Assembly: GCA_022071975.1 (NCBI GenBank)
Contig: JAJVIO010000036.1
Location: 1,606 to 65,605 of the forward strand
Direction: 5' to 3'
Origin: Planctomycetota bacterium
GTDB lineage: Bacteria; Planctomycetota; UBA8742; UBA2392
DNA length: 64,000 nucleotides
Part shown: in pieces, positions 14,789-49,017 of the stretch
Position numbering within the stretch: the stretch's first letter is position 1
How the letters are laid out: each line of letters starts with the position of its first letter
The notes under the pieces: model-generated
Told to the model about the DNA's origin: nothing
The model's database searches: none
The model's input: only the letters and a program-made list of their open reading frames with translations
Translations under genes and position numbers: made by a program

Positions 14789-17167
14789 ATGATTCGAACC
14801 AGTTTCTTCCTTTTAATTACGCTGCTGGCCCTGCCGGCCCTCGCCAACGACATCGCGGTCTCGGCCGCTGACGGCCGCAGCGGCTGGCTGCTCCTTGAGA
14901 ACCCGCCCGGCGCCTCGGGTGCCACACTCTCTGAACACGCTGGAGATCCCGGCCTGCCCGCTCCGGACGCGCTCGGCTGGCCCCACCGCGCGGGCGCCCG
15001 CGCCGACGGCACCTACCCGGAAACCGAGTTGTGGCACTATGACTCGCGCACGGAGCAGTTCGCCCGAGCCACCCACTTCCTGGGCGCCGGCAAGCAGGGC
15101 AGCGCTTATCGCCGCACCCTCTACGCAGTGTTCGCCATCGCCGGCACGCCCTACGTGCTTCACTTCGACCCCTACCGCACCCTCGGCGGCTACACCCAGC
15201 TTTTGCGCGTTGACGACAATGCCCCAGCCGCGCAAGGGAAGGTGCCGGAGGGTGCAGTGTGTCTGAGCTCTGCTGACTTTCTGGACGCGCCGGCCGTCTC
15301 GCCCGATGGCCGGCATGTGGCGTTCCGCGGCTTTCGCGACGGGGCTTACAACCTGCGTGTTTATGACACCGAGACCTGGAAGCTGATCGCGGAGACAGAG
15401 ACAGGCGCTTTCGCACGGCCTGTGTGGTGCGACAATTCCAGCCTGGCAGTGATCACATGGGATAGCGGCAAACAGCCCGAGGCCGCACAACGCGACCCGT
15501 CCCTCAAGTTCAGCACCCGGCTTCTCGAGTCCCACGCGCCACAGCCCGGCAAACTGCTGCGCGCCGACCTGTCCGAGAACACCCTCAAACTCACCGAGCT
15601 GTTGGCCGGTGAGTTCCCGCCTGACCAGTACACCCGCAGCGTGCTGGCTGACCCCTTCGGCCTCGGCCTGGTTGTAGCGCGCAAGGTTGGCGAAGAGGTT
15701 GCTGTCGAACTGCGCGAGCCCAGGCCCGAGGGCAAGGCTCGCGTCATCGCGCGATTCGCGGCCTACCGCGGCTGCGCGGTGAGCATGGGACGCATCCAGT
15801 GCGCGGGCGTGCGGGAAATTGAGCGCTCCAACACCTTCGTGCTGACGGACCTGCACCGCTGGGGTGAAGTGCGCGCCCCGGGCCGGCGCATCTGGCTGCC
15901 CGTCGGCGACCGCGAGCTGGTTCGTGAGTTTCCACTGGCGCACATCTCGCCCGACGGCCACGGCGGCATGATCGACCTGGGGCGCGGCGTGATGGGCGTG
16001 CTCGAGCCCGTGGTGAACCCCGAGTACGACCCCGCCAAACCCGACGCCGCGCAGCTGCTGCGACACACCATCACCATCGACAACTGGCCAGGCTGCACGA
16101 CCATGCGTAACCCGCGCATGCTCCAGCGACTCAGCAAGCTGGTACGGCGCTTCGAAGAAGTCGGCCAGGTCAGCAGCACCATCCTGGCTTTCGATATCAA
16201 GATTGCCGCCAACCAGGGCGCCAACGAAAAGAACGGCCGCTACATCGAGCTCTACAGCTCGGCGGGCCGGAAGGGCAAAGGGCGCATCCGAACCGAGGAC
16301 AACCTGGGCGGCAGCTGGCTGGTACAGTCGATCGATGGCAGCGGTGAGATGGCCGGCGACAACTACTACACCTGGGCGGGGCAGGGCGACAAGCTGAACG
16401 CACAGCCCGCCGCGCGCAGCGGCAAGGCCTATGACGACCTGGTCACCCAGCTCGAAACCCGCAAACTGCTGATGTTCAGCGGGGCCGAGAAGGCCGTTTA
16501 CCACGGCGGCTTGCTCTACCTTCAAGCAGGCCACTACCGTGACCCCAACAGCGGCGCTACCTGGCGCACCTGGGTGTACGCGCGCTACGGCCGCGTTTTG
16601 AACGAAGCCGACCAGGAGGCGAACGACAAGCTCGTTGCGCGGCTGGACGAACTGGCGGGCACGCTTGGCGATCCACAGGCTCGCGCGGAGTACGACAAGC
16701 AGTTGAAAGCCTGGTGGGCGATCCGCCGCGAGCGCGTGGTCGTACGCTTCGTGGCCGATTTACCGATCGGCTCGGCCGGCGACTGGAAGTTCCCCCACGC
16801 GATCGCGCAGGTGCAGATGCGTTTCGCGCTCGCGAACCAGCAGCAGGCGGCCGTCACCGAGCTGACCTTCGAGCCCGACCGCTGGGTGGCCCTGCCGCAC
16901 CTGGTGGATCTGCAGAACAACAAGCCGGAGAACGAGCGCAAACCTGACCTGCTGCTGCCTGCTGTGTTCCGCATTTATGAGCGCAACAAGGAAGGCAAGC
17001 TGGAGGAGAAGCTGAAGGCGGTGGCAGTCGGCGGCCGCGACGCCAAGGGCGCTGCACAGGGCTTTGATCACCCGGTGAAGCAGGTGAAGGCGGGCAGGAT
17101 AACACCGGGCTACGAAGTGCCGCTGGTGAAGTTCAGCAACAAGCAGTTCGTGGAGCTGCAGCGTTGA
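14789..17167 (+). CDS. Secreted hypothetical protein with TolB/PD40-like beta-propeller segment
   Basis: Signal peptide MIRTSFFLLITLLALPALA-ND and a PD40-like unit SPDGRHVAFRGFRDGAYNLRVYD. 792 aa with strong GC3 bias; no family recognised for the C-terminal half. Confidence 0.6.
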   Translation: MIRTSFFLLITLLALPALANDIAVSAADGRSGWLLLENPPGASGATLSEHAGDPGLPAPDALGWPHRAGARADGTYPETELWHYDSRTEQFARATHFLGAGKQGSAYRRTLYAVFAIAGTPYVLHFDPYRTLGGYTQLLRVDDNAPAAQGKVPEGAVCLSSADFLDAPAVSPDGRHVAFRGFRDGAYNLRVYDTETWKLIAETETGAFARPVWCDNSSLAVITWDSGKQPEAAQRDPSLKFSTRLLESHAPQPGKLLRADLSENTLKLTELLAGEFPPDQYTRSVLADPFGLGLVVARKVGEEVAVELREPRPEGKARVIARFAAYRGCAVSMGRIQCAGVREIERSNTFVLTDLHRWGEVRAPGRRIWLPVGDRELVREFPLAHISPDGHGGMIDLGRGVMGVLEPVVNPEYDPAKPDAAQLLRHTITIDNWPGCTTMRNPRMLQRLSKLVRRFEEVGQVSSTILAFDIKIAANQGANEKNGRYIELYSSAGRKGKGRIRTEDNLGGSWLVQSIDGSGEMAGDNYYTWAGQGDKLNAQPAARSGKAYDDLVTQLETRKLLMFSGAEKAVYHGGLLYLQAGHYRDPNSGATWRTWVYARYGRVLNEADQEANDKLVARLDELAGTLGDPQARAEYDKQLKAWWAIRRERVVVRFVADLPIGSAGDWKFPHAIAQVQMRFALANQQQAAVTELTFEPDRWVALPHLVDLQNNKPENERKPDLLLPAVFRIYERNKEGKLEEKLKAVAVGGRDAKGAAQGFDHPVKQVKAGRITPGYEVPLVKFSNKQFVELQR

Positions 17168-17192
17168 CCGGCGCGGATGGCCGCACCCCCTA

Positions 17193-17221
17193 TTGACGCT
17201 GTTACGGAGCTGGGATATCTA
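17193..17221 (+). promoter_or_regulatory. Possible sigma70-type promoter for the tRNA gene
   Basis: TTGACG (17193-17198), a 17-nt spacer, then TATCTA (17216-17221), about 40 nt upstream of the tRNA 5' end. The -10 match is weak. Confidence 0.3.
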
Positions 17222-17260
17222 TTGCCCCTCGCGCCGCAGGTCCGGGCGCCGATTGAAAAC

Positions 17261-17336
17261 TGCGGGGTGGAGCAGATGGCAGCTCGCAAGGCTCATAACC
17301 TTGAGGTCGCTGGTTCGAGTCCAGCCCCCGCTACCA
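17261..17336 (+). tRNA. tRNA-Met (anticodon CAU), initiator-like
   Basis: A 76-nt cloverleaf folds by hand. Acceptor stem UGCGGGG/CCCCGCU, D stem GAGC/GCUC, anticodon arm CAAGG-CUCAUAA-CCUUG, T arm GCUGG-UUCGAGU-CCAGC, with an encoded CCA. It shows a 1:72 mismatch and A11:U24. Confidence 0.9.
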
Positions 17337-17343
17337 AACAACA

Positions 17344-17377
17344 GCGCCCGGCATTGGCCGGGTGCTTTGTTTTTTTT
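17344..17377 (+). terminator. Rho-independent terminator after the tRNA
   Basis: Stem GCGCCCGGC / GCCGGGTGC (core CCCGGC-ATTG-GCCGGG is perfect), followed by TTTGTTTTTTTT. Confidence 0.75.
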
Positions 17378-17381
17378 AGGT

Positions 17382-17966
17382 TCACTGGCGGTGGGTTACT
17401 ACTACTCCCGTGCATTCGCCCTTGTTGAGTTTGCGGTATGAATGCTCGAGTGTGGCGTCGAAATACACGCTGTCCCCTTCCTCGAGCACGTGCTTGCGGC
17501 CATCCCAGGTGAGTTCCAGCCTGCCGGCCGTGATGAAGATGAACTCGATGCCCGCATGGCTGTGGGTCAAAGGCTCGGCGGCTTCCTTGAAGCTTGCGAG
17601 CCAGGCATTGAGGTCTGGCTCATGCACTGTGTAGTCCAGACTTTCGAAGTCATAGGGCATGGGATTGGACGTGTTTCGGCCGTCCAGCCGGATTCGCTCC
17701 GCCTTGCGCGTGATGCCAAAAGCGTGCCGAGCGGTGTGGTCGGTGAAGAAGAAGTCCAGGCCGGTGCTGAAGGCCAGAGCGATGCGGGTCAGCGTCGGGA
17801 GGGTCGGCACCACCTTGCCGCTCTCGATCTTGCTGAGCATCGCGGCGGACAGGCCTGTGTGTTGGCCCAGTTCCGTGAGGCGCAGCCCGCGATCCGTCCG
17901 CAAGGTGCGGATCTTCTCACCGATGCGGTAGTGTTCGAGCTCGGTTTCAATGGTTCTGGAAATCAC
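17382..17966 (-). CDS. XRE-family HTH transcriptional regulator with C-terminal cupin domain
   Basis: GTG 17966 is preceded by GAGGAGG. HTH region IRTLRTDRGLRLTELGQHTGLSAAMLSKIESG and cupin region HSHAGIEFIFITAGRLELTWDGRKHVLEEGDSVYFD. It overlaps the end of the ABC ATPase gene by 20 nt. Confidence 0.8.
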   Translation of the reverse strand: MISRTIETELEHYRIGEKIRTLRTDRGLRLTELGQHTGLSAAMLSKIESGKVVPTLPTLTRIALAFSTGLDFFFTDHTARHAFGITRKAERIRLDGRNTSNPMPYDFESLDYTVHEPDLNAWLASFKEAAEPLTHSHAGIEFIFITAGRLELTWDGRKHVLEEGDSVYFDATLEHSYRKLNKGECTGVVVTHRQ

Positions 17967-18840
17967 GTCTCGCCTCCTCAGATGCGCCGTTTTGCCCCCA
18001 GGGCTCGGAAAGCGGCCCTTTCCCCCTGCCCTGCACAAACTGGTTGATCACCTTGTCATCTGTCTCAATGAAGCTGGCCGGCGCCCCCTGGTGATGGATG
18101 CGCCCGCGCCACAGCATCAGGATCTCGTGGCTCAGGCGGAATGCCGTGCGCATCTCGTGCGTGACCGCCACGGCCGTGCAGCCGATTTTCCGCGTCAGCC
18201 CCAGCACCAGCTCATCCAGCACTGCCGCGGTCACCGGGTCAGCGCCGCTGGTTGGTTCATCCAGGAACAGCAGGTCGGGCTCGAGCACGATGGCGCGCGC
18301 CAGGGCGCAGCGCTTCTTCATGCCGCCGGACAGCTCCGCGGGCATGCGGTCGCGGGAATCCTGCATGCCTACCAGTTCAAGCTTGTGCTCGGCGATCCGG
18401 CGAATCATGGACGCCGAGAATTCGGTGTGAAGGCGCAACGGCAGCGCGACGTTTTCCAGCACGCTCATGCTGCTGAGCAGCGCCGCGGACTGGAACACGA
18501 CGCCAGTGCGCCTCCTAACGCTTTCTGATTCGGCCCCGGATACCGTTGACACGTCAATGCCCAGGATATGGATGCTGCCGGAGTCAACAGGCGTAAGTCC
18601 CAGCAGCGACTTCAACAGCGTGGTCTTGCCACAACCGCTCGGGCCGATGATCGAGTAAACGTGCCCGCGCTGCAGCTGAAAAGACAAGCCGTCCAGCACT
18701 CGCCTGCCGTCGTATTCCTTCACCAGCTCATGCACCCGGACGACAGTCTTCTGCACGGGCGCAGCCGGGCCAACAGCAGCCTGCGGAGCGGGATCGGCCG
18801 CGGGGCGCATGGGCACAAGGCTGGCTTCGCTGGACGGCAT
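17947..18840 (-). CDS. mlaF: ABC transporter ATP-binding protein, MlaF-like
   Basis: Walker A GPSGCGKTT, signature LSGGMKKR, Walker B LLFLDEPTSGAD. It lies directly downstream of an MlaE-like permease. The N-terminal start is uncertain (18840 or 18810). Confidence 0.8.
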   Translation of the reverse strand: MPSSEASLVPMRPAADPAPQAAVGPAAPVQKTVVRVHELVKEYDGRRVLDGLSFQLQRGHVYSIIGPSGCGKTTLLKSLLGLTPVDSGSIHILGIDVSTVSGAESESVRRRTGVVFQSAALLSSMSVLENVALPLRLHTEFSASMIRRIAEHKLELVGMQDSRDRMPAELSGGMKKRCALARAIVLEPDLLFLDEPTSGADPVTAAVLDELVLGLTRKIGCTAVAVTHEMRTAFRLSHEILMLWRGRIHHQGAPASFIETDDKVINQFVQGRGKGPLSEPWGQNGASEEARRDFQNH

Positions 18841-18847
18841 ATCACTC

Positions 18848-19684
18848 CTAGACCGGCGCGGTCGGGACCAGCTGCCAGGCCTGCAGCACGTTGTTCACCA
18901 TGGCGCAGAACAGGTCGATCGCGATGATCACCGCCTGGCACGCCACCACGGCGCCCATGGTCGCGCGGCCGAGCTCGGCGCTGCCGCCTTCGACCTGGAA
19001 CCCGCGATGCAGGGCCACGGCCGCGATGCCGATCGCGTAACAGAAGGCCTTGGCAACCGCAAAGGCCACGTCGTAGGGAACGATGAAGTAGCGCACGCTT
19101 TCCGCGAACACCTCCGCGCTGATGCCGAAGCTGGCAACGCCCATCAGGAATCCGCCCAGCAGCGCGACCACCTCGAACACCAGGGTGAGGCCCGCCAATG
19201 CTATGCCAACGGCCATCACGCGCGGAGCGGCGACAAAGGCTATCGGGCGGGCGCCCATGGCCTGCAGGGCATCCAGCTCCTCGCCAAGCTTCATGGCGCC
19301 GACCTCGGCCGCCAGCGAAGCGCCGATGCGCCCCGCGAACAGCAACGCGGTAATCACCGGGGCGATGAAGCGGGTGATCATGATGGCCAGCACGCCCGGC
19401 GCCACCTCGGGCGTGCCGCGGCGCTGGAAATCGGGCACTGTCTGCGCCATCACACCAGCGCCGATCAGGAAAGCCACGAACAGGATCAGCGGCAACGAGC
19501 GCCCGCCCATCACCTCGATCTGGCGCAACAGTTCGCGGCGGTCGTACACACGCGGCCTGACCAGGCCGACAAAGCCGTAGGCATACGCGCGCAAAGTGAA
19601 GCGCATGGTTGACCCGAAAGACGCCAGACCGTCGTTGATGACCGCCCCGAGCTTCGCAACCGGTTGTATGAGTGCCGGACTCAT
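18848..19684 (-). CDS. mlaE: ABC transporter permease, MlaE/YrbE-like
   Basis: Start MSPALIQP at 19684 overlaps the upstream stop (ATGA). Motifs LRQIEVMGGRSLPLI, GASLAAEVGAMKLGEELDALQAMG and VAKAFCYA are characteristic of MlaE-type permeases. Confidence 0.8.
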   Translation of the reverse strand: MSPALIQPVAKLGAVINDGLASFGSTMRFTLRAYAYGFVGLVRPRVYDRRELLRQIEVMGGRSLPLILFVAFLIGAGVMAQTVPDFQRRGTPEVAPGVLAIMITRFIAPVITALLFAGRIGASLAAEVGAMKLGEELDALQAMGARPIAFVAAPRVMAVGIALAGLTLVFEVVALLGGFLMGVASFGISAEVFAESVRYFIVPYDVAFAVAKAFCYAIGIAAVALHRGFQVEGGSAELGRATMGAVVACQAVIIAIDLFCAMVNNVLQAWQLVPTAPV

Positions 19685-20439
19685 GCGGGCTCCAGCTCTG
19701 TCAGCCGTTGCGGAGAGCGTCGCCCGGCCGCCTGCACGCCGAGATCGAATCCCATCAGCACCAGTGCAGCCACCCCCGGCAGCAGATAGCCGAGCGCGAA
19801 CGCGATCAGACCGAAGAACACGATTACGCTGCCGCCAATCCAGCGCGCGGCGGGATGCGGACTGAACTTCCGCGGAACCGCAAGGAAGATCAGCAGGCTG
19901 GTCACAAACCAGCCCGCGAAGTTCACCCACGGGATGCCGTAATAGGCGCCGCCACCCTCCCAGCGCCAGTAGCCAAGCGGTCCCGCCGCCAGCGGATCGA
20001 TCACCAGGTCAATCGCGGTCATCCATGCGGCCGCCACGAATGGCCGCCAAAGGCCTGGCAGCGCGAGCATGCTGACCCGCTGCTGCACGTATGCCAGCAG
20101 CACCAGCCAGGCGGCCGCCAGCACAAGCGGCACGCCGAGGAATGACGGGGCAAGCACACCCGTGTACTCGTACGCGCTGTATGGCACGCCGAACGCTACA
20201 CCGCTGAGTTCGGACAGAAAGCCGATGCCCGCGCCCACCGCCAGCCAGCGCCACCCCGACACGCGGGTCACCGAGAACACCAACGCGCCTGCCAGCGCCA
20301 GGAACACTGGCGCTGTCCACCCGGTGCCCTCCGGCGGACCGTCCAGAATCGCATACGACACAACACCACCCACCCACAGGAGGGCATAGGCGAGGACCAG
20401 CGGGACTTTCAGTACGTCAGGCGCTTTCATGTTTCTCAA
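19681..20439 (-). CDS. Carotenoid biosynthesis membrane protein (DUF422 / Caroten_synth family; CruF-like candidate 1,2-hydratase)
   Basis: Seven hydrophobic helices with the family-like motifs AIDLVIDPLA and YYGIPWVNFAGWF. It is embedded in the crt operon. Confidence 0.7.
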   Translation of the reverse strand: MRNMKAPDVLKVPLVLAYALLWVGGVVSYAILDGPPEGTGWTAPVFLALAGALVFSVTRVSGWRWLAVGAGIGFLSELSGVAFGVPYSAYEYTGVLAPSFLGVPLVLAAAWLVLLAYVQQRVSMLALPGLWRPFVAAAWMTAIDLVIDPLAAGPLGYWRWEGGGAYYGIPWVNFAGWFVTSLLIFLAVPRKFSPHPAARWIGGSVIVFFGLIAFALGYLLPGVAALVLMGFDLGVQAAGRRSPQRLTELEPA

Positions 20440-21877
20440 TCAGGCTGGAAGTGATTTTCGCCGACAGAAGCACCGTGGGCGTCCCGCCTCCCGGGTGTGA
20501 CGAGCCGCCGACCAGATACAGGCCGCGGGTACGCTGGCGGTTCGCCGGCCTGATAAACGCGTTCCTCCAGCCGTGGCTGTGGGCGCCGTAAATGGCGCCG
20601 CCGGGCATGCGGTAGCTGGCGCCGATGCGCCGGGGCGTCCAGTGGTCGATCGCCATTGCATCTTCGCGCAAGTCCGGCAGTCCGCTGCGTGCCAGGCGCC
20701 CGACCACGCGCTGCCAGGCGGTGCGGGTCATTGCCTCGTCCCACGGTTCTGCCCGGGCGGGCGCGTTGGCCATGATGAACAGCGTCTCGCCCTGGCCGGG
20801 CACCACGCCGCGGTCACTGCGGCTGGGGGCGTTGACATAGACCGTGGGATCTTCCGGGAACTCGCCGTCATCGAAGATCTGGCTGAATTCGCGCTGGTAA
20901 TCCGCGCTGAAGCACACGGTGTGGTGGTGCAGGTTCGGCATGTCGTTGCGCATCGCTGCCAGTGTGAGGAAGCCCGACATGCTGCGCCGCTCCGGCGGCA
21001 GCGTCGGCTCATCACCGCCCAGCAGCTGATTCAGGAAGCTCGCGTCGCCGTTCATGACAACCACGTCGGCGTTGATGCTGCCGCCATCCGCAAGATGCAC
21101 GCTCTTGACGCGTCCACGCTCATGGCCGATGCGGGCTACGGGCGCGTTGGCAAGCAGCGTCGCGCCCTTTTCCCGAGCGACTCCTGCCAGCGCCTCCACA
21201 ATGCGGTACAACCCCCCCTTCACGAACCAGCCGCCGTACGCGTGCTCCAGGTACGGAATCACCAGCAGCGTCGCCGGGCTTCGGAACGGCGAGCTGCCGA
21301 CGTAGGTGGGATAGCGGTTGAACATCTGCCGCAGGTACGGGCTGCGGAACAGCGAGCGCACGACCTTGTCGTAGTTCCCCCACGCGTTGCGCAAAGGGAA
21401 GTGACGCAGTGCCTTGATCGTGCGCCAGTCGGGCGGCTGATCCATCCCTCGGCGCAGGAACGTTTCGCTCGAGAGTTCGAACAGCCGCGCACCCAGCTCC
21501 AGGAAGCGCAGGAAGCCGTCCGCGTCCCGTGGCTCCAGCGCGCGAAGCACGTCCAGCCAATGCGGCAGATTTGTGCTGTGCTCGAAGCGGGTGCCGTCGG
21601 GCCAGATGTACTCGGCGACCGGCTCCAGGCGCACCAACTCAAGATGATCTTCCATCCGCGCGCCGGCAGCCTTGAAGGTCTCCTCGAACACGTGCGGCAT
21701 GGTGATCAGCGATGGGCCGGTGTCGAAGGTGTAGCCCTGGGTTTGCCAGCGGTTCATCTTGCCGCCGAAAGCCGGTCCCGCCTCGCAGAGCGTGACCATG
21801 TGGCCCGCGGCCGACAACCTGACCGCTGTCGCCAGGCCACCCAGCCCCCCGCCGATGATGGCAACGCGCAGGCTCAT
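20417..21877 (-). CDS. Phytoene-desaturase-family FAD oxidoreductase (CrtD/CrtP-like second desaturase)
   Basis: N-terminal dinucleotide fold VAIIGGGLGGLATAVRL followed by GGKMNRWQTQGYTFDTGPS, and C-terminal GLYLVGGSSHPGGGTP. Confidence 0.85.
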   Translation of the reverse strand: MSLRVAIIGGGLGGLATAVRLSAAGHMVTLCEAGPAFGGKMNRWQTQGYTFDTGPSLITMPHVFEETFKAAGARMEDHLELVRLEPVAEYIWPDGTRFEHSTNLPHWLDVLRALEPRDADGFLRFLELGARLFELSSETFLRRGMDQPPDWRTIKALRHFPLRNAWGNYDKVVRSLFRSPYLRQMFNRYPTYVGSSPFRSPATLLVIPYLEHAYGGWFVKGGLYRIVEALAGVAREKGATLLANAPVARIGHERGRVKSVHLADGGSINADVVVMNGDASFLNQLLGGDEPTLPPERRSMSGFLTLAAMRNDMPNLHHHTVCFSADYQREFSQIFDDGEFPEDPTVYVNAPSRSDRGVVPGQGETLFIMANAPARAEPWDEAMTRTAWQRVVGRLARSGLPDLREDAMAIDHWTPRRIGASYRMPGGAIYGAHSHGWRNAFIRPANRQRTRGLYLVGGSSHPGGGTPTVLLSAKITSSLIEKHESA

Positions 21878-23001
21878 ACCGATGCTCCCTCGGGCGCTTC
21901 ACGGTAGCGGCGCCCCTTCCACTCCACGCCACGGCCGGTGACGACGCGCCACCACGACGCCAATCCTATGGCCAACAAGAACAGCTCTGCAGCAGGATGC
22001 AGAAGCACCGACCAGAGCGGGTGCCCGAAACGAAGTGCAAGTAACAGACGCGCCAACAACACAGACAGCGCCGCCGCCATGAACAACGCGCCGGCCATTG
22101 ACCCGTCAAGAACGAGCAGCGCCAGGCCGAAGGGAAGCAGGAACACGCCCGCGTGCATCAGCATGAACGCCCAGAACCCGGCCTGGCTGCGGAATGCCGG
22201 GTAAAGGTTCTTGCGGAAGCCGGCCCAGATCTCGCCCAGCGAGCGATACATGCGTACACGCACGGTACCGGTACCGTCCAGGCACAAGCTTCGCTCACCG
22301 GCGGCGCGCCAGTGCTGGGCAAGGCGCGTGTCTTCAAACAGTTCGGACTTCACAAGTTCATGTCCGCCCAGCCTGCGGTAGACATCAGCCAGCACCATGA
22401 TGCAGGCGCCGTGGGCGATGCCCAGGGCACGATCCTGGCGTCGGGCCGCCAGCGGCGCCGGAAACAGGGTCAGCAGCACGAAGTTCAACAGCGGCATGAG
22501 CAGACGCTCCGCGAAGCCGCGCATCTCGAGCTGTGGCCAGCAGGACAGGAATGAAAGGCCGCGACGCCCGCATTCGGCGGCCATCCTGGCCGCAGCGCCC
22601 GGGGCGAGTCGCGCGTCCGCGTCAAGGAACAACAGCCAGTCCCCGGATGCCACGGCTCCCAGGCTCTGGCAGGCATGCGTCTTGCCACACCAGCCGCCGG
22701 GAAGCGCGGGCGGCTTCACCAGCTTCACGCGTCGGTCTTTCGCGGCGTAGCTTTCGATGATGTCGGGAGTCCGGTCCGTGGAGTGGTCGTCGGCGACCAG
22801 AATTTCGATCACATCCGGCTGCGTCAGCACGCTGTCGAGGCAGGCAGGCAGGTTCTCGGCCTCGTTTCTCGCCGGGATCAACACGCTGACCTTCGCGGGT
22901 GCCGTCAAGTTCCCGACGCGCCGCCAGCCGATCGCGTTGATCGCCACAACAGCAAGTGCGCCGAGGGACAGCGCAAAAACAATCGTCGCAAGTACCAGCA
23001 C
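21874..23001 (-). CDS. Family 2 glycosyltransferase (carotenoid glycosyltransferase candidate, CrtQ/CruG-like)
   Basis: VSVLIPARNEAENL, ADDHSTDRT and LFLDADARL (DxD-type), plus a C-terminal membrane domain. It has a 4-nt overlap with the next gene. Confidence 0.8.
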   Translation of the reverse strand: MLVLATIVFALSLGALAVVAINAIGWRRVGNLTAPAKVSVLIPARNEAENLPACLDSVLTQPDVIEILVADDHSTDRTPDIIESYAAKDRRVKLVKPPALPGGWCGKTHACQSLGAVASGDWLLFLDADARLAPGAAARMAAECGRRGLSFLSCWPQLEMRGFAERLLMPLLNFVLLTLFPAPLAARRQDRALGIAHGACIMVLADVYRRLGGHELVKSELFEDTRLAQHWRAAGERSLCLDGTGTVRVRMYRSLGEIWAGFRKNLYPAFRSQAGFWAFMLMHAGVFLLPFGLALLVLDGSMAGALFMAAALSVLLARLLLALRFGHPLWSVLLHPAAELFLLAIGLASWWRVVTGRGVEWKGRRYREAPEGASV

Positions 23002-23003
23002 GG

Positions 23004-23855
23004 TTACCCCGCCTGCTTCGTCTCGGAAACCTGCGCGCCCGCAAGCAGCCAGTCCGCGAAGTCATGCAGGAACTTGACTTCCGGCGATGCCCCGAACACC
23101 TCCGCGAGGTGAGCCTTGGCCCGGTCAATCCACCCGGCGGCCCGTTGGCGCAACTCATGCGGCGTCAAACCCGCCCAAGCCCGGTCGTCTTCAAGATCGT
23201 GCGAATCGTCCACAAGCTGGTATCCCATCCCGGCGCAGTGGCCGAAACCGGAGAGGCCGTCAACAACAGCCGGCCTGGAAGCCGCCGCTATGGCCGGGGC
23301 AACCAGCGCGAGGCGGAACAGCGTCGTGGTCTTCAGGTAGTGCTCTTCCCGGATGCCGGCCCGTTCGCCCGCATCGACCTGCAGGTCAATGGTCTGGCCG
23401 GCTACCATGCCGCGGTGGCCGATACATTCGCACGCCAGCCGAACGAGCTCACGTCCGTTGGGTAGCTCCGCAAGCAGTGCATAGGTCTGGTTCAGCAGCG
23501 CCATTGCCGCCAGCACGGCCACGCCCTCGCCGAAGCGCAGATGGGTAGACACGCGGCCGCGGCGTTCACGGGTGTCGTCCATGCACGGCAGGTCGTCAAG
23601 AATCAGGGAGGCCGTGTGGAGATACTCCAACGCGGCCCCAATGCGCATGGCATGGTCCTGGCCCAGCCCGACCATCCGCGCAGCCACCAGCACAAGCACG
23701 GGGCGCATGCGTTTGCCACCGCTGAACACCGCGTAGTGCACGGCCTGATCGAGAGCCGCGGTTCCCGGCATGCCTGACACAGGAAGATGGGAATGCAGCG
23801 CGGCCTCAATTCCCGGCGCCAGTTCGTGGATCAGCTGTTTTGCGTGGGTGTCCAT
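23004..23855 (-). CDS. Polyprenyl diphosphate synthase (GGPP/FPP synthase, CrtE-like)
   Basis: First Asp-rich motif LILDDLPCMDD and second YQLVDDSHD; also GGKRMRP. Confidence 0.85.
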   Translation of the reverse strand: MDTHAKQLIHELAPGIEAALHSHLPVSGMPGTAALDQAVHYAVFSGGKRMRPVLVLVAARMVGLGQDHAMRIGAALEYLHTASLILDDLPCMDDTRERRGRVSTHLRFGEGVAVLAAMALLNQTYALLAELPNGRELVRLACECIGHRGMVAGQTIDLQVDAGERAGIREEHYLKTTTLFRLALVAPAIAAASRPAVVDGLSGFGHCAGMGYQLVDDSHDLEDDRAWAGLTPHELRQRAAGWIDRAKAHLAEVFGASPEVKFLHDFADWLLAGAQVSETKQAG

Positions 23856-23856
23856 T

Positions 23857-24615
23857 TCAGGCTCCGTGCACGGCCGGTTGCTGGAACACGGCCTGTGCGA
23901 TTTCCGCGGCGCAGTCCTGGATCACCAGGTGCGCTGCGCCCTTCAGCTCAAGGGTCTGCGCGTGTGGCCAGATCTCGCGCCACATGGGAACACTTTTGCG
24001 GACGGCGCCGAAGGATTCCCTGCCCCACACGATCAGGGTCGGCAGAATCACTCCGGCGAACTGGCGACAGTCGCCAAGGTCCACGCATGCGCGCAGCCAG
24101 GCCAGCGTGTTCTCGTGGTTCGCGTGCTTGAAGTCGTCGGTGACTCCGCCGTTTCGCTTCTGTTTGCGCAGAGCAACGTTCGTGAGTTTGCGCCCCACGG
24201 GGTTGGCGAACGTGGTGCGATAGGCGTGGTGCCCCCAGCTGCGGTTGGTGAACACGCGAAAGTACTTCGGCGCGTAGGCGAAACTGTCCACCATCACCAG
24301 CATTTCGGGCTTTCGCGCCAGATGTTCGACGGCGCGGATGGCCGGGTAAGCGCCGCTGCAGTTGCTGAGCAACGTCAAGGACTCGTACTTCATGGTGTTG
24401 ATGACCTGGGCCAGGTCGCGACCCACATCGCGCATGTCCCAGCTTTGCGGCACGGGCGAGTTGCCGAAGCCGGGCAGGTCAAACGCGGCCATGCGCACGC
24501 CCGCGGGCAGGTGCCGCGCCAAGGCGTCAAAATGAGTGTGATCGCCGGTCCAGCCATGCAGGGCAACGACCAGGCGGTCGCCTTTACCGTGCGTCTTGAA
24601 GTACATCCGCTTCAA
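23857..24615 (-). CDS. Alpha/beta-hydrolase-fold protein within the crt operon
   Basis: LVVALHGWTGDHTHF and FDLPGFGNSP. The nucleophile elbow is atypical (SNCSGA). It overlaps the upstream crtI-like gene. Confidence 0.65.
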   Translation of the reverse strand: MKRMYFKTHGKGDRLVVALHGWTGDHTHFDALARHLPAGVRMAAFDLPGFGNSPVPQSWDMRDVGRDLAQVINTMKYESLTLLSNCSGAYPAIRAVEHLARKPEMLVMVDSFAYAPKYFRVFTNRSWGHHAYRTTFANPVGRKLTNVALRKQKRNGGVTDDFKHANHENTLAWLRACVDLGDCRQFAGVILPTLIVWGRESFGAVRKSVPMWREIWPHAQTLELKGAAHLVIQDCAAEIAQAVFQQPAVHGA

Positions 24616-26143
24616 TCCTTTCCGCGGTCATCTTCCCGCTGAGTATCACCATGGGCATGCCGGTTCCCGGAGTGGTGCCCGCGCCCGCGTAGTACAGACC
24701 CGCGACGTCAGGCGAGCGGTTAGGCGCGCGAAATGGGCCGACTTGCATCAGGTTGTGGGCAGCCCCGAATGCGGATCCCTGATACAGGCCGAACCGTGCA
24801 CGCCATTCAACCGGCGTCCAGGCTTCTTCCACCGCGATGCGCTCGGGGTGCAGGCTGATACCGTGCTCACTCAGACGCTTCAGCACTTCGCGTCGGATGC
24901 GCGGGACTTCTGTTGACCAGTCAAGATCGCCCAGCCGGTCCAGCGTCGGCGTCGGGACCAGCACGAAGACCTGCGTATCACCGGCCGGCGCCAGGCCAGG
25001 GTCCGTGCGCGACGGCACGGCCACATAGAACGGCAAGTCGTTGGGGACGCGGCCGCGCTTCATGAGGTCACGGAATGCGCCTCGGTAGTCGTCCGGCAGG
25101 AAGATCGTGTGATGCCCGAGGTTCGGAATTTCGCCGCGGACGCCCCAGTAAAATGTCAGCACACCGGGTGTCATGCGTGTGCGCGATGCGGATCGAGCGC
25201 CTGATGCGCGAAGTGCTGCATCGCCGAGCAGGCGCGAGTTGGTGGTCGGCACATCCACGTTACTGACCACGACGTCGGCGGAGATACGTGTCCCGTCGGC
25301 CAAGTCAACGCCTGTGGCACGACCGTTCTGAATCACGATGCGGTTGACCCGCGCACCGGTGCGGATTTCCACGCCCACGTCCAGCGCGGCGCGCTCGATG
25401 GCACGCACCATCCCGTAGATGCCGCCTTCCGGCAGCCACAATCCGTGAGCAATCTCGCCATAGGCGAGAATCGTGAAAATGCCGGGCAAGTCAAACGGCG
25501 AACCGCCCAGGTACATGCCGTAAGCGCCCAGGGCCTCGCGCACGTGACGACTCTTGAAGAAGCGCTTGAGTTCATGATCCAGCGACCGCCACACGCCGGT
25601 GCGGAGCAACTCCGAAAGTGAGAGCGGCTTGAACCAGTCCACGAATCCGGCCGCGTTGCGCGTCACCAGCTTTTCGAAGGAGATGCGGAACTTCTCAGCG
25701 CTGTCGCGCAGCCAGGCTGTCAACGCCGGGCCCGCCGCGGGCTCGAACTTCGCAAGTTCCTTCAGCAGCAGCGCGAAGTCGCTGCTCAGCGTCAGTTTGC
25801 GCCCGTCGCGCCATTGGAAAGCTACCGATGGATCCACCGGCAGCAGGCGAATCTCAGAGTCCATGTCCTTGCCGGCCGCGGCGAACAGCTCACGGAAAAC
25901 CCAGGGGTAATTCAGCAGGGATGGCCCGGTGTCGAAGTGAAAGCCCTCACGCTCGATGCGGTTAGCACGCCCGCCGACACGCTGGTTGGCCTCCAGCAGC
26001 GTCACGCGGAAGCCGCGCCGACGCAGATGGATGGCCGCGCTGAGCCCACCGAGCCCAGCCCCCACGATCAACGCGCGGCGAGCGTGTGCCTTTTCGGCGC
26101 TGGTTGTATCCGCGCCTGATGTCATCAAGGTCTGCATGGTCAA
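24584..26143 (-). CDS. crtI: Phytoene desaturase (CrtI; alternatively CrtN-type)
   Basis: ALIVGAGLGGLSAAIHL, GGRANRIEREGFHFDTGPS and C-terminal GLYYAGAGTTPGTGMP. It has a 4-nt overlap with the synthase gene. Confidence 0.8.
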   Translation of the reverse strand: MTMQTLMTSGADTTSAEKAHARRALIVGAGLGGLSAAIHLRRRGFRVTLLEANQRVGGRANRIEREGFHFDTGPSLLNYPWVFRELFAAAGKDMDSEIRLLPVDPSVAFQWRDGRKLTLSSDFALLLKELAKFEPAAGPALTAWLRDSAEKFRISFEKLVTRNAAGFVDWFKPLSLSELLRTGVWRSLDHELKRFFKSRHVREALGAYGMYLGGSPFDLPGIFTILAYGEIAHGLWLPEGGIYGMVRAIERAALDVGVEIRTGARVNRIVIQNGRATGVDLADGTRISADVVVSNVDVPTTNSRLLGDAALRASGARSASRTRMTPGVLTFYWGVRGEIPNLGHHTIFLPDDYRGAFRDLMKRGRVPNDLPFYVAVPSRTDPGLAPAGDTQVFVLVPTPTLDRLGDLDWSTEVPRIRREVLKRLSEHGISLHPERIAVEEAWTPVEWRARFGLYQGSAFGAAHNLMQVGPFRAPNRSPDVAGLYYAGAGTTPGTGMPMVILSGKMTAERIEADVLQDAR

Positions 26144-27126
26144 GCGGTCTCCAAGCCCAGGTACGCCAGCGGTAATCGCCAGTACTTGCTGGCAGGCAGC
26201 ACGCTGAACTTGCGTGAAAGGGGCACACTCTCGCGCCGCTGCAGCGAGAAGGCTTCGGCCAGACGGTCGTTGAGTTCGCCGTAGACCCGTATGCAGGCGT
26301 CGATTGCGATGCGGCAGTCGGCACTGAAGGCGTCGAGGTTCTCGCGCGCGAAGTCGTAGTCGCGCCGGGCAATCCCGGCGAGTTCCGCCACCACTTCGCC
26401 CAGCGCATCTCGCGCTTCCGGGCTGCTGAAGTCGCGTCCTGCCACGCCGCGTGCGCTGAGCATGTCCGTGGGCAGGTAGAGCCGACCGCGGCTGCGGTCT
26501 TCGGCAACATCGCGCAGGAAGTTCGTCAGCTGCAGCGCGATGCCCAGTCGTCGCGAGGCGGCCATCGCGCGATCGAAGTCCGACGCGCCGTAGATGTAGG
26601 CGAGGAAGTAGCCGACCACAATTGCACTGCCGTAGATGTAGTTGTCGACCAGGTCGTCCAGATTCTCGTAGCTGCGCGGGCGCACATCCGCATGCATGGC
26701 ATCCAGGAACGCGTGATAGTACTGCGCGGGAATACCCGTCTCGCGCAGCACCTGGGCGAAGCCCGCCAGGATCACGGGCACTCCATCAAGCAGCGCTTCG
26801 CGAATCGAGCCTGCCGAGCGCGCCTGCTCAAACCGCGCGCGCCAATCCGCCAGTTTCTGCTCTCGTCGTTCGGCCGACAGTGGAAACGTGTCCACTACTT
26901 CATCCGGGTAGCGCACCGCCGCGTAAACCAGATCGACTTGAGCGCGCTTCTCCGGCGGCAGGAACCGTGTGACGATGAAAAAGGAAGTGGAGTAGTGTTT
27001 CAGCACCTCGCGCCCGTGGGCGACGATCGCCTGGCGCGCGCCACGTTCGCTCAAGCCCAGGGCGCGGCGGCGCACCACGGCGTCCCGCACCTGCCACTCT
27101 GTGTTTGACCAGTTGCGTGAAGACAT
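26140..27126 (-). CDS. crtB: Phytoene synthase (CrtB; alternatively CrtM-type dehydrosqualene synthase)
   Basis: STSFFIVTRFLP, YAAVRYPDEVVD and LQLTNFLRDVAEDRSRGRLYLP (squalene/phytoene synthase signatures). First gene of the operon. Confidence 0.8.
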   Translation of the reverse strand: MSSRNWSNTEWQVRDAVVRRRALGLSERGARQAIVAHGREVLKHYSTSFFIVTRFLPPEKRAQVDLVYAAVRYPDEVVDTFPLSAERREQKLADWRARFEQARSAGSIREALLDGVPVILAGFAQVLRETGIPAQYYHAFLDAMHADVRPRSYENLDDLVDNYIYGSAIVVGYFLAYIYGASDFDRAMAASRRLGIALQLTNFLRDVAEDRSRGRLYLPTDMLSARGVAGRDFSSPEARDALGEVVAELAGIARRDYDFARENLDAFSADCRIAIDACIRVYGELNDRLAEAFSLQRRESVPLSRKFSVLPASKYWRLPLAYLGLETA

Positions 27127-27184
27127 CGCGGCTCCCGCCAGTTCGGTTCAATGGAACGGGCACAGAACGCCGGGCGCGCGAATT

Positions 27185-27233
27185 GTTTTCCATGTATGAA
27201 AACTATTTTTCTCCATTTTCAATCAAAGAAAAC
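27185..27233. promoter_or_regulatory. Two operator-like inverted repeats RTTTTC-N7-GAAAAC, 30 bp apart, in the AT-rich divergent promoter island
   Basis: GTTTTC-CATGTAT-GAAAAC (27185-27203) and ATTTTC-AATCAAA-GAAAAC (27215-27233), about 60-105 nt upstream of the crtB-like ATG (27126, minus strand). Confidence 0.45.
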
Positions 27234-27405
27234 TTCTGAGTCGGCCGTTTCACCGCAGGAAAAACCCGGGACGCCGCCGTCGCCTTCATGGCCGCCGCGC
27301 CTGTAACTCAGATGTAACAACTGAAAAACGCCGGAACCCTTCGTGGCGAGCGGCCGTCCTTAGACAGTGGAGAACAGCCCCTTTTACCCCCTTTCGAGAG
27401 AAGCC

Positions 27406-28791
27406 ATGAATCCGAACAAGACAACACTTCTGCTGGCCGGCGCCGCGATTGCCGGCCTGGTGCTTTCCGCCTGCGTCAGCCGCACTCAACCCCCACCGCC
27501 GGACGGATGCCAGGGCAGCGGCTGCTCGGCCGGCGGCTCGAACTCCGCTGGCGGTGCAAACACCGACAACGACTCGTCGGGCACGACTGGGGCCGGTACC
27601 ACCATTGGCCACGAGTTGCCCGAGCCGGGGCCGATCGACCCTTTCATGGACAAGGCGATCGAGTACCTGGTTGCCGCCCAGCACGAAAACGGCGGCTGGG
27701 GCGGCGGCTCGCACTCGCACCAGGACGTGCGCGACCCCCACGCGGTGCAGGTGGACCCGGGCAGCACCTCGTTCGCCGCCATGGCGCTGATACGCGCCGG
27801 CCACACCCCGTTCTCGGGCAAATACAAGGAAGCGGTGCTGAAGGCAACGAAGTACGTGGTCGGGGCCGTTGAGGAGGCGGCAGAAGAAGGCCCGCGCATC
27901 ACCAACCTGCAGGGCACGCAGCTGCAGAGCAAGCTGGGCCAGATCATTGACACGTCAATGGCTTCCCAGTTCCTGGCCCGGGCGCTGCCGCTGACCGAGC
28001 CAGACCCGACGCTGCAGAACCGCGTGGAGGCCGCACTCGACAAGTGCATCCGGAAGATCGAATCCTCGCAGGGCGAGGATGGTGGCTGGACCACGCAGGG
28101 CTGGGCGCCGGTGCTGCAATCCTCGATGAACAACCAGGCGCTTGAGTTGGCGCAGGTGGCAGGGCGCAAGGTGGATGAAACCGTGCTCAGGCGCTCGCGC
28201 GAGTACCAGCGCCGCGATGTGGACGTAAACACAGGAAACGTGGGGGGCGCCAAGGCCAGCGACGCCGCAGGCGTCAGCTTCTATGCCGGCGCTGCCACCC
28301 AGCGCGCCACGGCCAAGGATGCCAGCGAGGTCGAACGGGCCCTGGAACAGGCAAAAGAGAAGGGAATCGTGGCGCCCAGCGCGAAGGTTGACGCGGACAC
28401 GCTTACCAAAATCGGCTACAGCGCTGACCAGGCTCGGGACAAGGCTGAGGCATGGCAGCAGAACGAAGCGCTGCAGCGGCGCCTGGACGACCAGAACTAC
28501 CTGTCCGGCTTCGGCAACAACGGTGGCGAGGAATTCATCAGCTACATGATGAGCAGCGAATCCATCGTCATCACCGGCGGCGACACCTGGACGAAGTGGA
28601 ACCAGAAGATGCACACCATGTTCGAGAAGATCCAGAATGCCGACGGAAGCTGGAGCGGCCACCACTGCATCACCAGCCCGGTGATCTGCACCGCGGCGGC
28701 GCTGCTGTGCTTGACCGCAGACCGCGACGTCCACGTGCTGCTGGAAAGCAGTCCGCTGGTGAAGGCCGACAAGAACGCAAAAGAGAGTTGA
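27406..28791 (+). CDS. Lipoprotein with prenyltransferase/squalene-oxidase (alpha/alpha-toroid) repeats
   Basis: Start MNPNKTTLLLAGAAIAGLVLSAC (lipobox LSAC). Repeats YLVAAQHENGGWGGG, SSQGEDGGWTTQGW and IQNADGSWSGHH. The listed ATG 27367 is less likely. Confidence 0.75.
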   Translation: MNPNKTTLLLAGAAIAGLVLSACVSRTQPPPPDGCQGSGCSAGGSNSAGGANTDNDSSGTTGAGTTIGHELPEPGPIDPFMDKAIEYLVAAQHENGGWGGGSHSHQDVRDPHAVQVDPGSTSFAAMALIRAGHTPFSGKYKEAVLKATKYVVGAVEEAAEEGPRITNLQGTQLQSKLGQIIDTSMASQFLARALPLTEPDPTLQNRVEAALDKCIRKIESSQGEDGGWTTQGWAPVLQSSMNNQALELAQVAGRKVDETVLRRSREYQRRDVDVNTGNVGGAKASDAAGVSFYAGAATQRATAKDASEVERALEQAKEKGIVAPSAKVDADTLTKIGYSADQARDKAEAWQQNEALQRRLDDQNYLSGFGNNGGEEFISYMMSSESIVITGGDTWTKWNQKMHTMFEKIQNADGSWSGHHCITSPVICTAAALLCLTADRDVHVLLESSPLVKADKNAKES

Positions 28792-28802
28792 CCGACACCC
28801 CG

Positions 28803-28834
28803 GTGCGCGGCCGGCAAGCATGCCGGCCGCGCAC
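28803..28834. other. Perfect 14-bp GC-rich hairpin between the two lipoprotein genes
   Basis: GTGCGCGGCCGGCA-AGCA-TGCCGGCCGCGCAC; no U-tract follows. Confidence 0.4.
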
Positions 28835-28850
28835 GCGTGAAAGGGCCGCG

Positions 28851-48825: not shown

Positions 48826-48967
48826 TGTCCCTGCTCCTTTATGTATGGGGCCCGATTGTAGCTCGTGTTTCGCGGTCTTTCGTTCCGTATCTGATTTTTT
48901 ACACGCGTTGTCGCCTCGTCGAACACACACTTCGCGTCGTACTGTCGGAAACGCCTGGAGAAACTGA

Positions 48968-48992: not shown

Positions 48993-49017
48993 CGCTCATC
49001 CGATTAACTTATGAGTC

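Follow-up and report, generated by a model that had tools for sequence, protein, structure and literature searches.

The ten-gene carotenoid operon

Ten co-directional genes occupy positions 17382-27126 on the minus strand of the window, the 64,000-nucleotide stretch of Planctomycetota bacterium DNA analysed here, with no gap between them longer than 7 nt. They run from an SQS_PSY synthase through CrtI, an alpha/beta hydrolase, a GGPP-type prenyl synthase, a membrane GT2 glycosyltransferase, CrtD and a PF04240 CruF-like protein to MlaE, MlaF and an XRE-cupin regulator, and Pfam and NCBIfam searches reproduced the domain assignments that a sequence-only reading had given to all ten. Computed with homology-supported start codons, the nine junctions are, from the synthase end, an overlap of 4 nt (or a gap of 2), an overlap of 23, gaps of 1 and 2, overlaps of 4, 14 and 4, a gap of 7 and an overlap of 20. 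The earlier description of overlaps or gaps of at most 7 nt therefore holds for the gaps, but some overlaps are longer (14, 20 and 23 nt). The shared orientation and tight junctions support the proposed compact operon, which by its anatomy would be a single transcription unit.

A GC-rich hairpin (17343..17366, unstranded), the strongest terminator-like site in 17100-27500, lies between the regulator stop codon and a plus-strand tRNA-Met gene (17261-17336) and is likely a two-way terminator marking the operon end. Upstream, an AT-rich island (27185..27233, unstranded) holds two TTTTC-N7-GAAAA palindromes, 106 and 76 nt before the synthase start. Only four such sites occur in the 4.24-Mb genome, including these two. 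The same place in G006 carries one exact and one degenerate copy, and G001, G005 and G018 have degenerate dyads at the corresponding position; the palindromes are a candidate operator.

The first gene (26140..27126, minus strand, as are all that follow) encodes a phytoene-synthase-type head-to-head prenyl synthase (PF00494, 186 bits), which falls below the cut-off of all NCBIfam equivalogs (HpnD, 151 bits; CrtB, ~105 bits) and stands first in all related loci. The CrtI-family phytoene desaturase (24584..26143; TIGR02734 crtI_fam, 460 bits, cut-off 238) is 67-84% identical to the copies of its relatives. The alpha/beta-fold enzyme (23857..24615, likely start ATG 24606; Abhydrolase_1/6) has a nucleophile elbow of the form [GST]-x-C-[SA]-G, with an invariant Cys among 16 orthologues from three phyla, and is a candidate acyltransferase or esterase that may act on the glycoside. 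The short-chain prenyl diphosphate synthase (23004..23855; PF00348, 128 bits) matches the NCBIfam models FPPsyn (157 bits) and CrtE (124 bits) below threshold. It carries Ala/Ser at -5/-4 before DDLPCMDD, its first DDxxxxD motif, and a small residue at -5 of this motif is the mark of the GGPP-synthase (CrtE) type.

The next gene (21874..23001) encodes a CruC/CruG/HpnB-like membrane GT2 glycosyltransferase (PF00535, Glycos_transf_2, 85 bits; HpnB 157 and CruG 131 bits, each below its cut-off) with hydrophobic segments at the N terminus and in the C-terminal third. It is followed by a CrtD-like 1-hydroxycarotenoid 3,4-desaturase (20417..21877), which scores 360 bits against NF045637 CrtD (cut-off 580) and 356 bits, above the cut-off, against crtI_fam. 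The CruF-like polytopic membrane protein (19681..20439, likely start ATG 20430; PF04240, Caroten_synth, 90 bits) matches CruF models below threshold, contains at least five hydrophobic segments and is the presumed carotenoid 1,2-hydratase. These domain and family matches support the enzyme types behind the CruF, CrtD and glycosyltransferase chemistry proposed earlier. The search found neither a lycopene cyclase nor a ketolase. Given the GGPP-type prenyl synthase with its -5 residue, the CruF-type hydratase and the lack of a detected lycopene cyclase, the product is probably a polar acyclic C40 carotenoid glycoside, and the C30 route (CrtM/N/P/Q) raised as an alternative is unlikely.

A reaction scheme for CruF/CrtD/CruC(G)/CruD-type carotenoid glycoside pathways is available (PMC5822342). 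The operon resembles these pathways, which lead to myxol glycosides, OH-chlorobactene glucoside laurate and salinixanthin, in having a 1,2-hydratase, a 3,4-desaturase, a GT2 and a possible acylating enzyme, but the protein that may do the acylating here has a Cys-type alpha/beta fold and is not a CruD-type acyltransferase, and no cyclase or ketolase was found. To our knowledge, none of the described clusters of this kind contains an ABC transporter. An Acidobacteriota cassette (L127, L128) has PSY-CrtI-ABH-PPS-GT2-CrtD-CruF in the same order, with CruF 48-51% identical, but differs in lacking mlaEF and XRE-cupin and in having a photolyase gene upstream.

The MlaE/MlaF pair, the XRE-cupin gene and their conservation

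The longest ORF would place the start of the MlaE-type ABC permease (18848..19684, 278 aa; PF02405, 184 bits) at GTG 19930, but the correct start is ATG 19684, which is preceded by GGAG and overlaps the cruF stop codon (ATGA). Its AlphaFold model (pLDDT 81) has a long N-terminal helix (residues 3-42) and finds only MlaE/YrbE chains as structure matches (TM 0.78-0.88). For the MlaF-type ATPase (17947..18840), the best NCBIfam model is MlaF PRK11831 (190 bits, below cut-off), the top PDB matches include MlaF and MceG, and all motifs are present (Walker A GPSGCGKT, signature LSGGMKKR, Walker B LLFLDEP, H-loop VTHE). These matches support the identification of an MlaE/MlaF-like ABC pair.

The last gene encodes a 194-aa regulator with an XRE-type HTH and a cupin domain (17382..17966; HTH_3/HTH_31 and Cupin_2; initial ORF 17382-18038). 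Its start is most likely GTG 17966, which is preceded by a GAGGAGG site, agrees with the onset of homology in relatives and places the gene in a 20-nt overlap with mlaF. XRE-cupin is absent from G009, G013, L013 and L131 and convergent in L130. In G006, G021 and L129 it stands behind the crt operon, and in G001, G005 and G018, which have no mlaEF, directly behind cruF. It accompanies the crt operon with or without the pair.

From the synthase to MlaF, the nine genes keep one order at every MlaE orthologue locus examined, in at least six species, and the order is likewise kept in G006, G009, G013 and G021. The 4-nt cruF/mlaE overlap is kept in all nine orthologous loci with annotated coordinates (L009-L013, L129-L131). 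Since the flanking genes are unrelated between loci, this arrangement is not chance. The crt-linked MlaE proteins (P0002-P0016) form a monophyletic, long-stemmed clade, with identities of 67-100% (mean column identity 80%) and a drop to 37% beyond it; the next relatives stand at 35-39%. All members found belong to a single uncultured Planctomycetota family, where 6 of 23 genomes carry the clade, and no description of a pigment operon fused to an Mla-type module was found in the literature searched. The layout, rightly called unusual, recurs across this family.

The seven crt genes occur without mlaEF in four other family members (G001, G005, G016, G018) and in Acidobacteriota. A tree rooted on Acidobacteriota gives one gain and two losses of mlaEF, with no gene remnants left, which indicates that mlaEF is an accessory add-on, dispensable for making the pigment. 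These clean losses, together with the fact that the pair copies just the first two genes of an mlaE-mlaF-MCE-MCE operon, would suit a duplicated piece of a housekeeping operon that was inserted downstream of cruF and has persisted there with no functional link to the pigment. We regard such passive carriage as very improbable, given that the pair has been retained in at least four genera despite divergence down to 67% identity, that its motifs and the start-stop overlap are intact, and that the low dN/dS (0.04-0.20 for mlaE, 0.15-0.24 for mlaF) matches that of the crt genes, so that purifying selection on the pair is equally strong.

MCE genes and paralogous Mla systems

The absence of an MCE subunit from the operon, reported earlier, extends further: no MCE domain (PF02470) was found on the contig of the window, and no MCE gene lies within 10 kb of eight annotated orthologous crt-mlaEF loci. 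A PF02470 search found four MCE genes elsewhere in the host genome, as the suggestion of a subunit encoded elsewhere would require. However, all 23 family genomes have 3-4 MCE genes irrespective of the presence of crt-mlaEF. The MCE genes of the family are core genes whose number is independent of crt-mlaEF, and "encoded elsewhere" can therefore only mean that a housekeeping MCE protein is borrowed.

Three core Mla-like systems are present in the host genome. The closest paralogues of the crt-linked pair are the MlaE (35%) and MlaF (47%) of an mlaE-mlaF-MCE-MCE operon (G000:C57:25900-29070), where the same E-F order is followed by two MCE genes, and this housekeeping operon is the probable source of the duplicated pair. 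The E-then-F order is that of the family's own Mla operons, but the crt-linked copy differs from the housekeeping operon, which is core in the family, in having no MCE gene, a long branch and a distribution limited to 6/23 genomes. Only one MCE gene is unattached. It is likewise core, and its more probable partner is a fused MlaF-MlaE protein, also core, encoded 20-30 kb away.

The crt-linked MlaE2F2 might dock a housekeeping MCE in trans, most likely the two long proteins of the paralogous operon, and complete a full envelope bridge through which the carotenoid glycoside would reach the outer membrane, as suggested earlier for a subunit encoded elsewhere. The paralogy favours such docking, and the family MCE proteins are of the long form (about 325-380 aa), with no MlaC or MlaA found by the search. 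Long MCE proteins without MlaC/MlaA have been read as transenvelope bridges (Grasekamp et al., 2023; PMC10665443). The N-terminal helix region is also kept, and its aligned counterpart in E. coli contains IF1, the helix to which the membrane helices of MlaD dock (PMC7790496), so that the crt-linked MlaE could still bind a housekeeping MCE. On the other hand, no MCE gene co-varies with crt-mlaEF, and a shared partner interface is hard to reconcile with an MlaE that has diverged to 35-39% on a long stem. We know of no precedent for one hexameric MCE ring shared by two permeases, and we consider the bridge somewhat unlikely. No characterised permease of the MlaE/YrbE/TGD1 type is known to us to function without an MCE protein, which speaks for the bridge and counts against MCE independence.

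A possible role in pigment translocation

Our preferred reading, held tentatively, is that mlaEF is a dedicated translocator of the glycosylated carotenoid and works with no MCE partner of its own. The early enzymes of the operon would convert GGPP to phytoene and lycopene, the CruF-like protein would introduce the 1-hydroxyl group and CrtD the 3,4-desaturation, the membrane GT2 would glycosylate the carotenoid at the cytoplasmic face, and the Cys-type alpha/beta-fold enzyme may acylate the glycoside. GT2 enzymes use cytoplasmic nucleotide sugars, and with membrane segments in this GT2, a polar head group made inside the cell would need help in crossing the membrane. An ATP-driven MlaE2F2 module dedicated to the glycoside could pull it out of the inner membrane's cytoplasmic leaflet and expose it on the periplasmic side, acting as an extractor or flippase like the MlaE fold relatives Wzm, TarG, LptFG and ABCA/ABCG; the fold has relatives among glycolipid flippases and lipid extruders (PMC7790496). 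The pair would then be an optional refinement of pigment location, outside synthesis itself.

The tight operon anatomy, the conserved nine-gene order and cruF/mlaE overlap, the low dN/dS and the intact motifs argue for this translocator and make the pair a strong candidate pigment pump. Its independence from MCE is suggested by the lack of an MCE gene near any annotated locus and the constant MCE count in the 23 genomes. In addition, the structure matches of the MlaE model include an MlaFEB complex solved without MlaD (PDB 7ch7), so an assembly lacking MlaD can be stable. Against the translocator, the pair is missing from four relatives and from the Acidobacteriota, so that its role is dispensable, the product itself is a prediction, and gene linkage can reflect an indirect need, such as phospholipid adjustment in a pigment-loaded membrane.

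It is improbable that mlaEF moves ordinary phospholipids rather than the pigment, being co-expressed with the crt genes to rebalance membrane lipids when much rigid carotenoid is inserted. The known Mla substrates are glycerophospholipids (PMC7790496, PMC10665443) and a pair dispensable for the pathway would fit. However, three core Mla-like systems are already present, the long stem and tight conservation within the clade suggest a changed specificity, and the 4-nt coupling to cruF in every locus exceeds what co-regulation requires. Still less probable is transport in the reverse direction, with mlaEF retrieving the pigment, a precursor or a breakdown product from the periplasmic side to the inner membrane. 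Retrograde transport is the role most often accepted for Mla in proteobacteria (PMC10665443, PMC11289387), but the direction is disputed, and flippase and export activity has been reported (preprint 10.1101/2020.06.06.138008). There is also no evident reason for a producer to take its own membrane pigment back in, and the sequence carries no information on direction.

The closest known systems are MlaFEDB of E. coli, A. baumannii and P. aeruginosa and the minimal MlaEFD of Veillonella parvula (PDB 6XBD, 7CH8, 6Z5U; PMC7790496, PMC10665443). The crt-linked pair shares with them the MlaE fold (model TM 0.78-0.85 to MlaE chains, at 24-30% identity to the solved chains) and an MlaF-like ATPase with all motifs, but it lies inside a carotenoid operon, coupled to cruF, with no MCE/MlaD in or near the operon or co-varying with it, and no STAS protein (MlaB), MlaC or MlaA. 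The MlaE model also matches YrbE1A (TM 0.80-0.88) of mycobacterial Mce1 (YrbE1A/B, MceG and six Mce proteins; PDB 8FEE). Mce1 and plant TGD1/2/3 show that the MlaE/YrbE fold serves lipids other than phospholipids; both depend on MCE proteins. The isoprenoid-glycoside substrate proposed here is suggested by gene context only.

Other lipid and pigment clusters carry exporters, such as HpnN (RND) for hopanoids and an MMPL gene in the crt cluster of Corynebacterium glutamicum, and aryl-polyene and flexirubin clusters have LolA-like or RND genes. The crt-mlaEF operon follows the same logic, a membrane-lipid pathway joined to a dedicated trafficking part, but the class differs, the part here being an Mla-type ABC pair.

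Carotenoid operon and its MlaE/MlaF pair

Profile searches with Pfam and NCBIfam models reproduced all of the gene identities that the sequence-only reading had proposed for the ten minus-strand genes at 17382–27126. These genes form an operon of about 9.7 kb in the order SQS_PSY synthase, CrtI-family desaturase, alpha/beta hydrolase, polyprenyl synthase (PPS), GT2 glycosyltransferase, CrtD-like desaturase, CruF-like protein (PF04240, Caroten_synth), MlaE, MlaF-like ATPase, and an HTH and cupin (XRE-cupin) regulator, and are carried by a 4.24-Mb metagenome-assembled genome (G000) that is 88.7% complete, with the window at C20:1606–65605. Proteins closely related to those encoded here are recorded from metagenome-assembled genomes of Planctomycetota or Planctomycetaceae. 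The tight packing previously described, with overlaps or gaps of 7 nt or less, holds for the gaps when homology-supported starts are used, but the overlaps reach 23 nt. The mlaE start codon (ATG, 19684) overlaps the cruF stop codon (ATGA) and is preceded by a GGAG 6 nt upstream, mlaE and mlaF are separated by 7 nt, and the regulator starts at GTG 17966 after a GAGGAGG, coinciding with the onset of homology in relatives. The only strong terminator-like hairpin (17343–17366) lies 3' of the regulator and is shared with a convergent tRNA-Met gene; terminator-like sites within the operon number 14, compared with 8.5 ± 3.2 in shuffled sequence, and all of them are weak.

The permease belongs to the MlaE family (PF02405, 184 bits against a cut-off of 22.5) and scores below the NCBIfam equivalog and subfamily cut-offs (TIGR00056, 172 vs 212; NF033619, 132 vs 315). 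Its AlphaFold model (pLDDT 80.9, pTM 0.76) agrees with the MlaE fold, which is characterised by N-terminal interfacial helices, five membrane helices and a coupling helix; all 16 significant PDB matches to the model are MlaE or YrbE chains (TM 0.65–0.88), and the coupling-helix motif GEELDAL is found in the protein. The C-terminal tail was dropped as a novel feature, as the paralogous MlaE of the family's housekeeping mlaE-mlaF-MCE-MCE operon (contig C57 in G000; C57-type) carries a similar one. The ATPase is of the MlaF type, with MlaF as its top NCBIfam model, MlaF and MceG among its best PDB matches, and intact Walker A, signature, Walker B and H-loop motifs. With dN/dS values of 0.04–0.20 for mlaE and 0.15–0.24 for mlaF, which are rough because dS is saturated, both genes experience purifying selection no weaker than that acting on the carotenoid (crt) genes. 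That the pair is a functionless hitch-hiker is thus highly improbable.

A search of 5.8 billion proteins with MlaE returned 15 clusters at 67–100% identity, followed by a drop to 37%. The order of the nine genes from the synthase to MlaF is identical in every orthologous locus with a readable contig (L009/L010/L011, L012, L013, L129, L130 and L131, and the genomes G006, G009, G013 and G021), and the 4-nt cruF/mlaE overlap is kept in all loci with gene coordinates, while the flanking genes vary on both sides. The linkage of crt genes and mlaEF is conserved and no accident. A conserved additional gene after mlaF was sought and rejected, since the next gene varies nearly everywhere (fn3, TPR, hypothetical, toroid, A2M or regulator).

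The XRE-cupin gene is found with crt genes and mlaEF in four loci (G000, G006, G021 and L129) and is convergent in L130; it also goes with crt genes without mlaEF in G001, G005 and G018, and is missing from other lineages. The regulator is part of the pigment operon rather than of the transporter. Upstream of the synthase start, at distances of 106 and 76 nt, are two TTTTC-N7-GAAAA palindromes (27185–27233); the whole genome has only four. They are partly conserved: G006 has an exact and a degenerate copy in the corresponding position, and G001, G005 and G018 have degenerate dyads. The two palindromes are candidate operators.

Predicted pigment

A head-to-head synthase, a CrtI-family desaturase, a CrtD-like desaturase and a PF04240 hydratase occur together, as in C40-type clusters. 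The family and subfamily models passed are PF00494, TIGR02734 (twice) and PF04240, and every function-specific equivalog model falls below its cut-off. All planctomycete and acidobacterial copies of the PPS have Ala/Ser at -5/-4 relative to the first Asp-rich motif, small residues that we take, by the established chain-length rule, to be the GGPP-synthase pattern. A C30 route would need no dedicated prenyl synthase, and to our knowledge C30 routes do not use a CruF-type 1,2-hydratase. The synthase itself scores higher on HpnD (151 bits) than on CrtB (105 bits), both below threshold, and solved structures were uninformative on C30 versus C40, as the PDB comparators are only C30 and squalene synthases. 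A C40 product is judged probable. A second SQS_PSY-family gene in the genome (G000:C9:94890–95774, 152 bits) may encode a squalene-type synthase.

No lycopene cyclase was found in the incomplete (88.7%) genome. The GT2 glycosyltransferase is a membrane enzyme with sub-threshold scores on CruG (131 bits, cut-off 600) and HpnB (157, cut-off 379), and a CruD-type enzyme is absent. In the alpha/beta-fold protein (23857–24615), the nucleophile elbow, [GST]-x-C-[SA]-G, has an invariant Cys in place of Ser in the window and in L009, L013 and L118–L131, which span Planctomycetota, Acidobacteriota and Kiritimatiellia. The invariant Cys would suit an acyl-enzyme mechanism, making the protein a candidate acyltransferase only. 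Taken together, the PPS residues, the CruF-type hydratase, the lack of a detected cyclase, the GT2 and the Cys-type alpha/beta-fold protein lead to the prediction of an acyclic, 1-hydroxylated, 3,4-desaturated C40 carotenoid glycoside, possibly acylated.

Distribution and origin of the pair

Among 60 relatives, orthologues of the crt-linked MlaE occur only in the window's family of uncultured Planctomycetota, in 6 of 23 genomes (the window's own included) and 4 of 7 genera; a scan that took a single genome from each GTDB species added at least three further carriers, all Planctomycetota among the matches listed. The crt cluster is present in 10 of the 23 family genomes, and in four of these (G001, G005, G018 and G016) it is a seven-gene version without mlaEF, in which cruF is followed directly by the regulator (G001, G005 and G018) or by unrelated genes (G016). 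No mlaEF remnants were detected in these operons at E up to 10, and all four lie on long contigs, so the absence is no assembly artefact. The seven crt genes also occur without mlaEF in Acidobacteriota, in unchanged order, and in Kiritimatiellia, in rearranged order. In a tree of the seven concatenated crt proteins rooted on the acidobacterial cassettes (an unrooted version was also built), both mlaEF-less groups fall, with 100% support, within lineages that bear mlaEF. The most economical history suggested by this tree is a single acquisition of mlaEF at the root of the planctomycete radiation, followed by two losses. The seven-gene operons and their placement indicate that the pathway runs without the pair; mlaEF is an accessory add-on and contributes something optional.

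The closest matches to the pair within its own genome are the first two genes of the C57 mlaE-mlaF-MCE-MCE operon (MlaE 35%, MlaF 47%); a second housekeeping operon, mlaE-mlaF-MCE, is located on contig C1. Phylogenetically, the crt-linked MlaE proteins form a monophyletic clade on a long stem, attached beside the family's C57-type sequences.

The suggestion that an MCE/MlaD subunit missing from the operon could be encoded elsewhere was upheld only in part. Four MCE-domain (PF02470) genes are present in G000, of which the C1 operon contains one and the C57 operon two, while the fourth is unattached (C4:28509–29495), but none is dedicated to the crt-linked pair, and PF02470 is absent from the window's contig and from within 10 kb of the annotated orthologous loci. 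The MCE count is three to four in all 23 family genomes irrespective of whether they carry crt-mlaEF, crt genes only or neither; the four assemblies with three are all incomplete. The operon's proteins contain no STAS domain (MlaB), and MlaC and MlaA (PF05494, PF04333) have no match in the 88.7%-complete genome. The lack of MlaC and MlaA matches agrees with the type, described by Grasekamp et al. (PMC10665443), that has MlaEFD only and long MlaD proteins.

The unattached MCE gene was rejected as a dedicated partner, being core in the family, with no specific link to the crt genes. A single 556-aa protein in which an ABC ATPase and an MlaE-like permease are joined (G000:C4:49371–51041) is likewise core (21 of 23 family genomes), lies 20–30 kb from this MCE gene in several genomes, and is the more natural partner for it; the two may constitute a split Mla-like system. 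Also rejected as the missing periplasmic partner were the toroid lipoproteins (27367–30011), which have orthologues in crt-negative genomes and are absent from five mlaEF-positive genomes.

Possible role of the pair and genomic surroundings

The coupling to cruF, the co-inheritance, the strong selection, the divergence from the paralogues and the lack of an MCE of its own argue that the pair would handle the operon's product. The conserved overlap translationally couples mlaE to cruF, the last membrane enzyme of the pathway. Polar carotenoids are synthesised on the cytoplasmic side of the inner membrane, where GT2 presumably attaches the sugar, and a polar head group added at that face needs help in crossing the membrane. 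The structure of an MlaFEB complex lacking MlaD has been solved (PDB 7ch7), which speaks for its stability. We therefore tentatively favour MlaE2F2 as a stand-alone extractor or flippase for the glycosylated pigment. The main rival, in which a bridge of housekeeping MCE proteins is borrowed for access to the outer membrane, is the earlier idea of an MCE encoded elsewhere in the only form that this genome allows; we consider it possible, if rather unlikely. The optional contribution of the pair might instead be phospholipid rebalancing, which is improbable beside the coupling to cruF. All crt-mlaEF carriers are uncultured, and we infer the product, the substrate and the direction of transport; the reverse direction, retrograde retrieval, appears quite improbable.

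The stand-alone extractor or flippase may be specified further, as an MlaE2F2 that acts without any MCE on an isoprenoid pigment glycoside, evolved from MlaEF-MCE-MCE by shedding the MCE genes, is translationally coupled to CruF and perhaps takes the product directly from it. This fuller version is speculative and, as a whole, on the unlikely side; if true, it would be the first Mla-type ABC module without an MCE to act on an isoprenoid pigment glycoside. A literature search turned up no account of an Mla-type module within a natural carotenoid cluster; its matches dealt with engineered E. coli or with unrelated abbreviations. What is new here, as judged from the genes, is an Mla core that has apparently been drawn into a pigment pathway and has lost its MCE.

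We know of no dedicated transporter for polar carotenoids, and the literature search found none. The pair raises the questions of how polar carotenoids cross the inner membrane or reach the outer membrane in double-membraned bacteria, and of whether an MlaE/MlaF core can dispense with an MCE ring and act on a non-phospholipid substrate. The substrates of Mla-like systems are hard to assign, and here the gene context names one. Close relatives with the same pigment operon and the pair cleanly removed serve as natural controls, and the operon, at 9.7 kb, is small and lends itself to expression in E. coli, either including or omitting mlaEF. The pair may also interest engineers of carotenoid production, in which export and membrane capacity limit yield (PMC10742120).

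In the mlaEF-less G001, G005 and G018, a TspO/MBR gene (PF03073, 162 bits; L118:13036–13533 in G001, also in L119 and L121) extends the crt operon past the regulator; the TspO gene of the window's genome is located elsewhere (G000:C29:34224–34670). TspO (CrtK) also sits in the crt cluster of Rhodobacter. The acidobacterial cassettes (L127:1342–10744 and L128:1320–10747) both have a DNA photolyase gene directly upstream and an ATG22-like MFS transporter gene nearby on the opposite strand. Divergent from the crt operon in the window are two plus-strand genes for SQHop_cyclase-repeat (alpha/alpha toroid) proteins (27367–28791 and 28452–30011). Genes of this kind also lie after mlaF in L131 and before the crt operon in G001, and their distribution across the family tracks neither the crt genes nor mlaEF. 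Beyond them, on the minus strand, lie a 6328-aa open frame (30013–48999) and a bacterial alpha-2-macroglobulin (A2M) of 2087 aa with MG2, A2M, TED and bMG10 domains (49018–55281). In L129, too, an A2M gene comes after the operon of crt genes, mlaEF and regulator, and in G021 the operon is adjoined by a homologue of the C terminus of the 6328-aa protein; this neighbourhood of A2M and giant protein is local synteny of the family.
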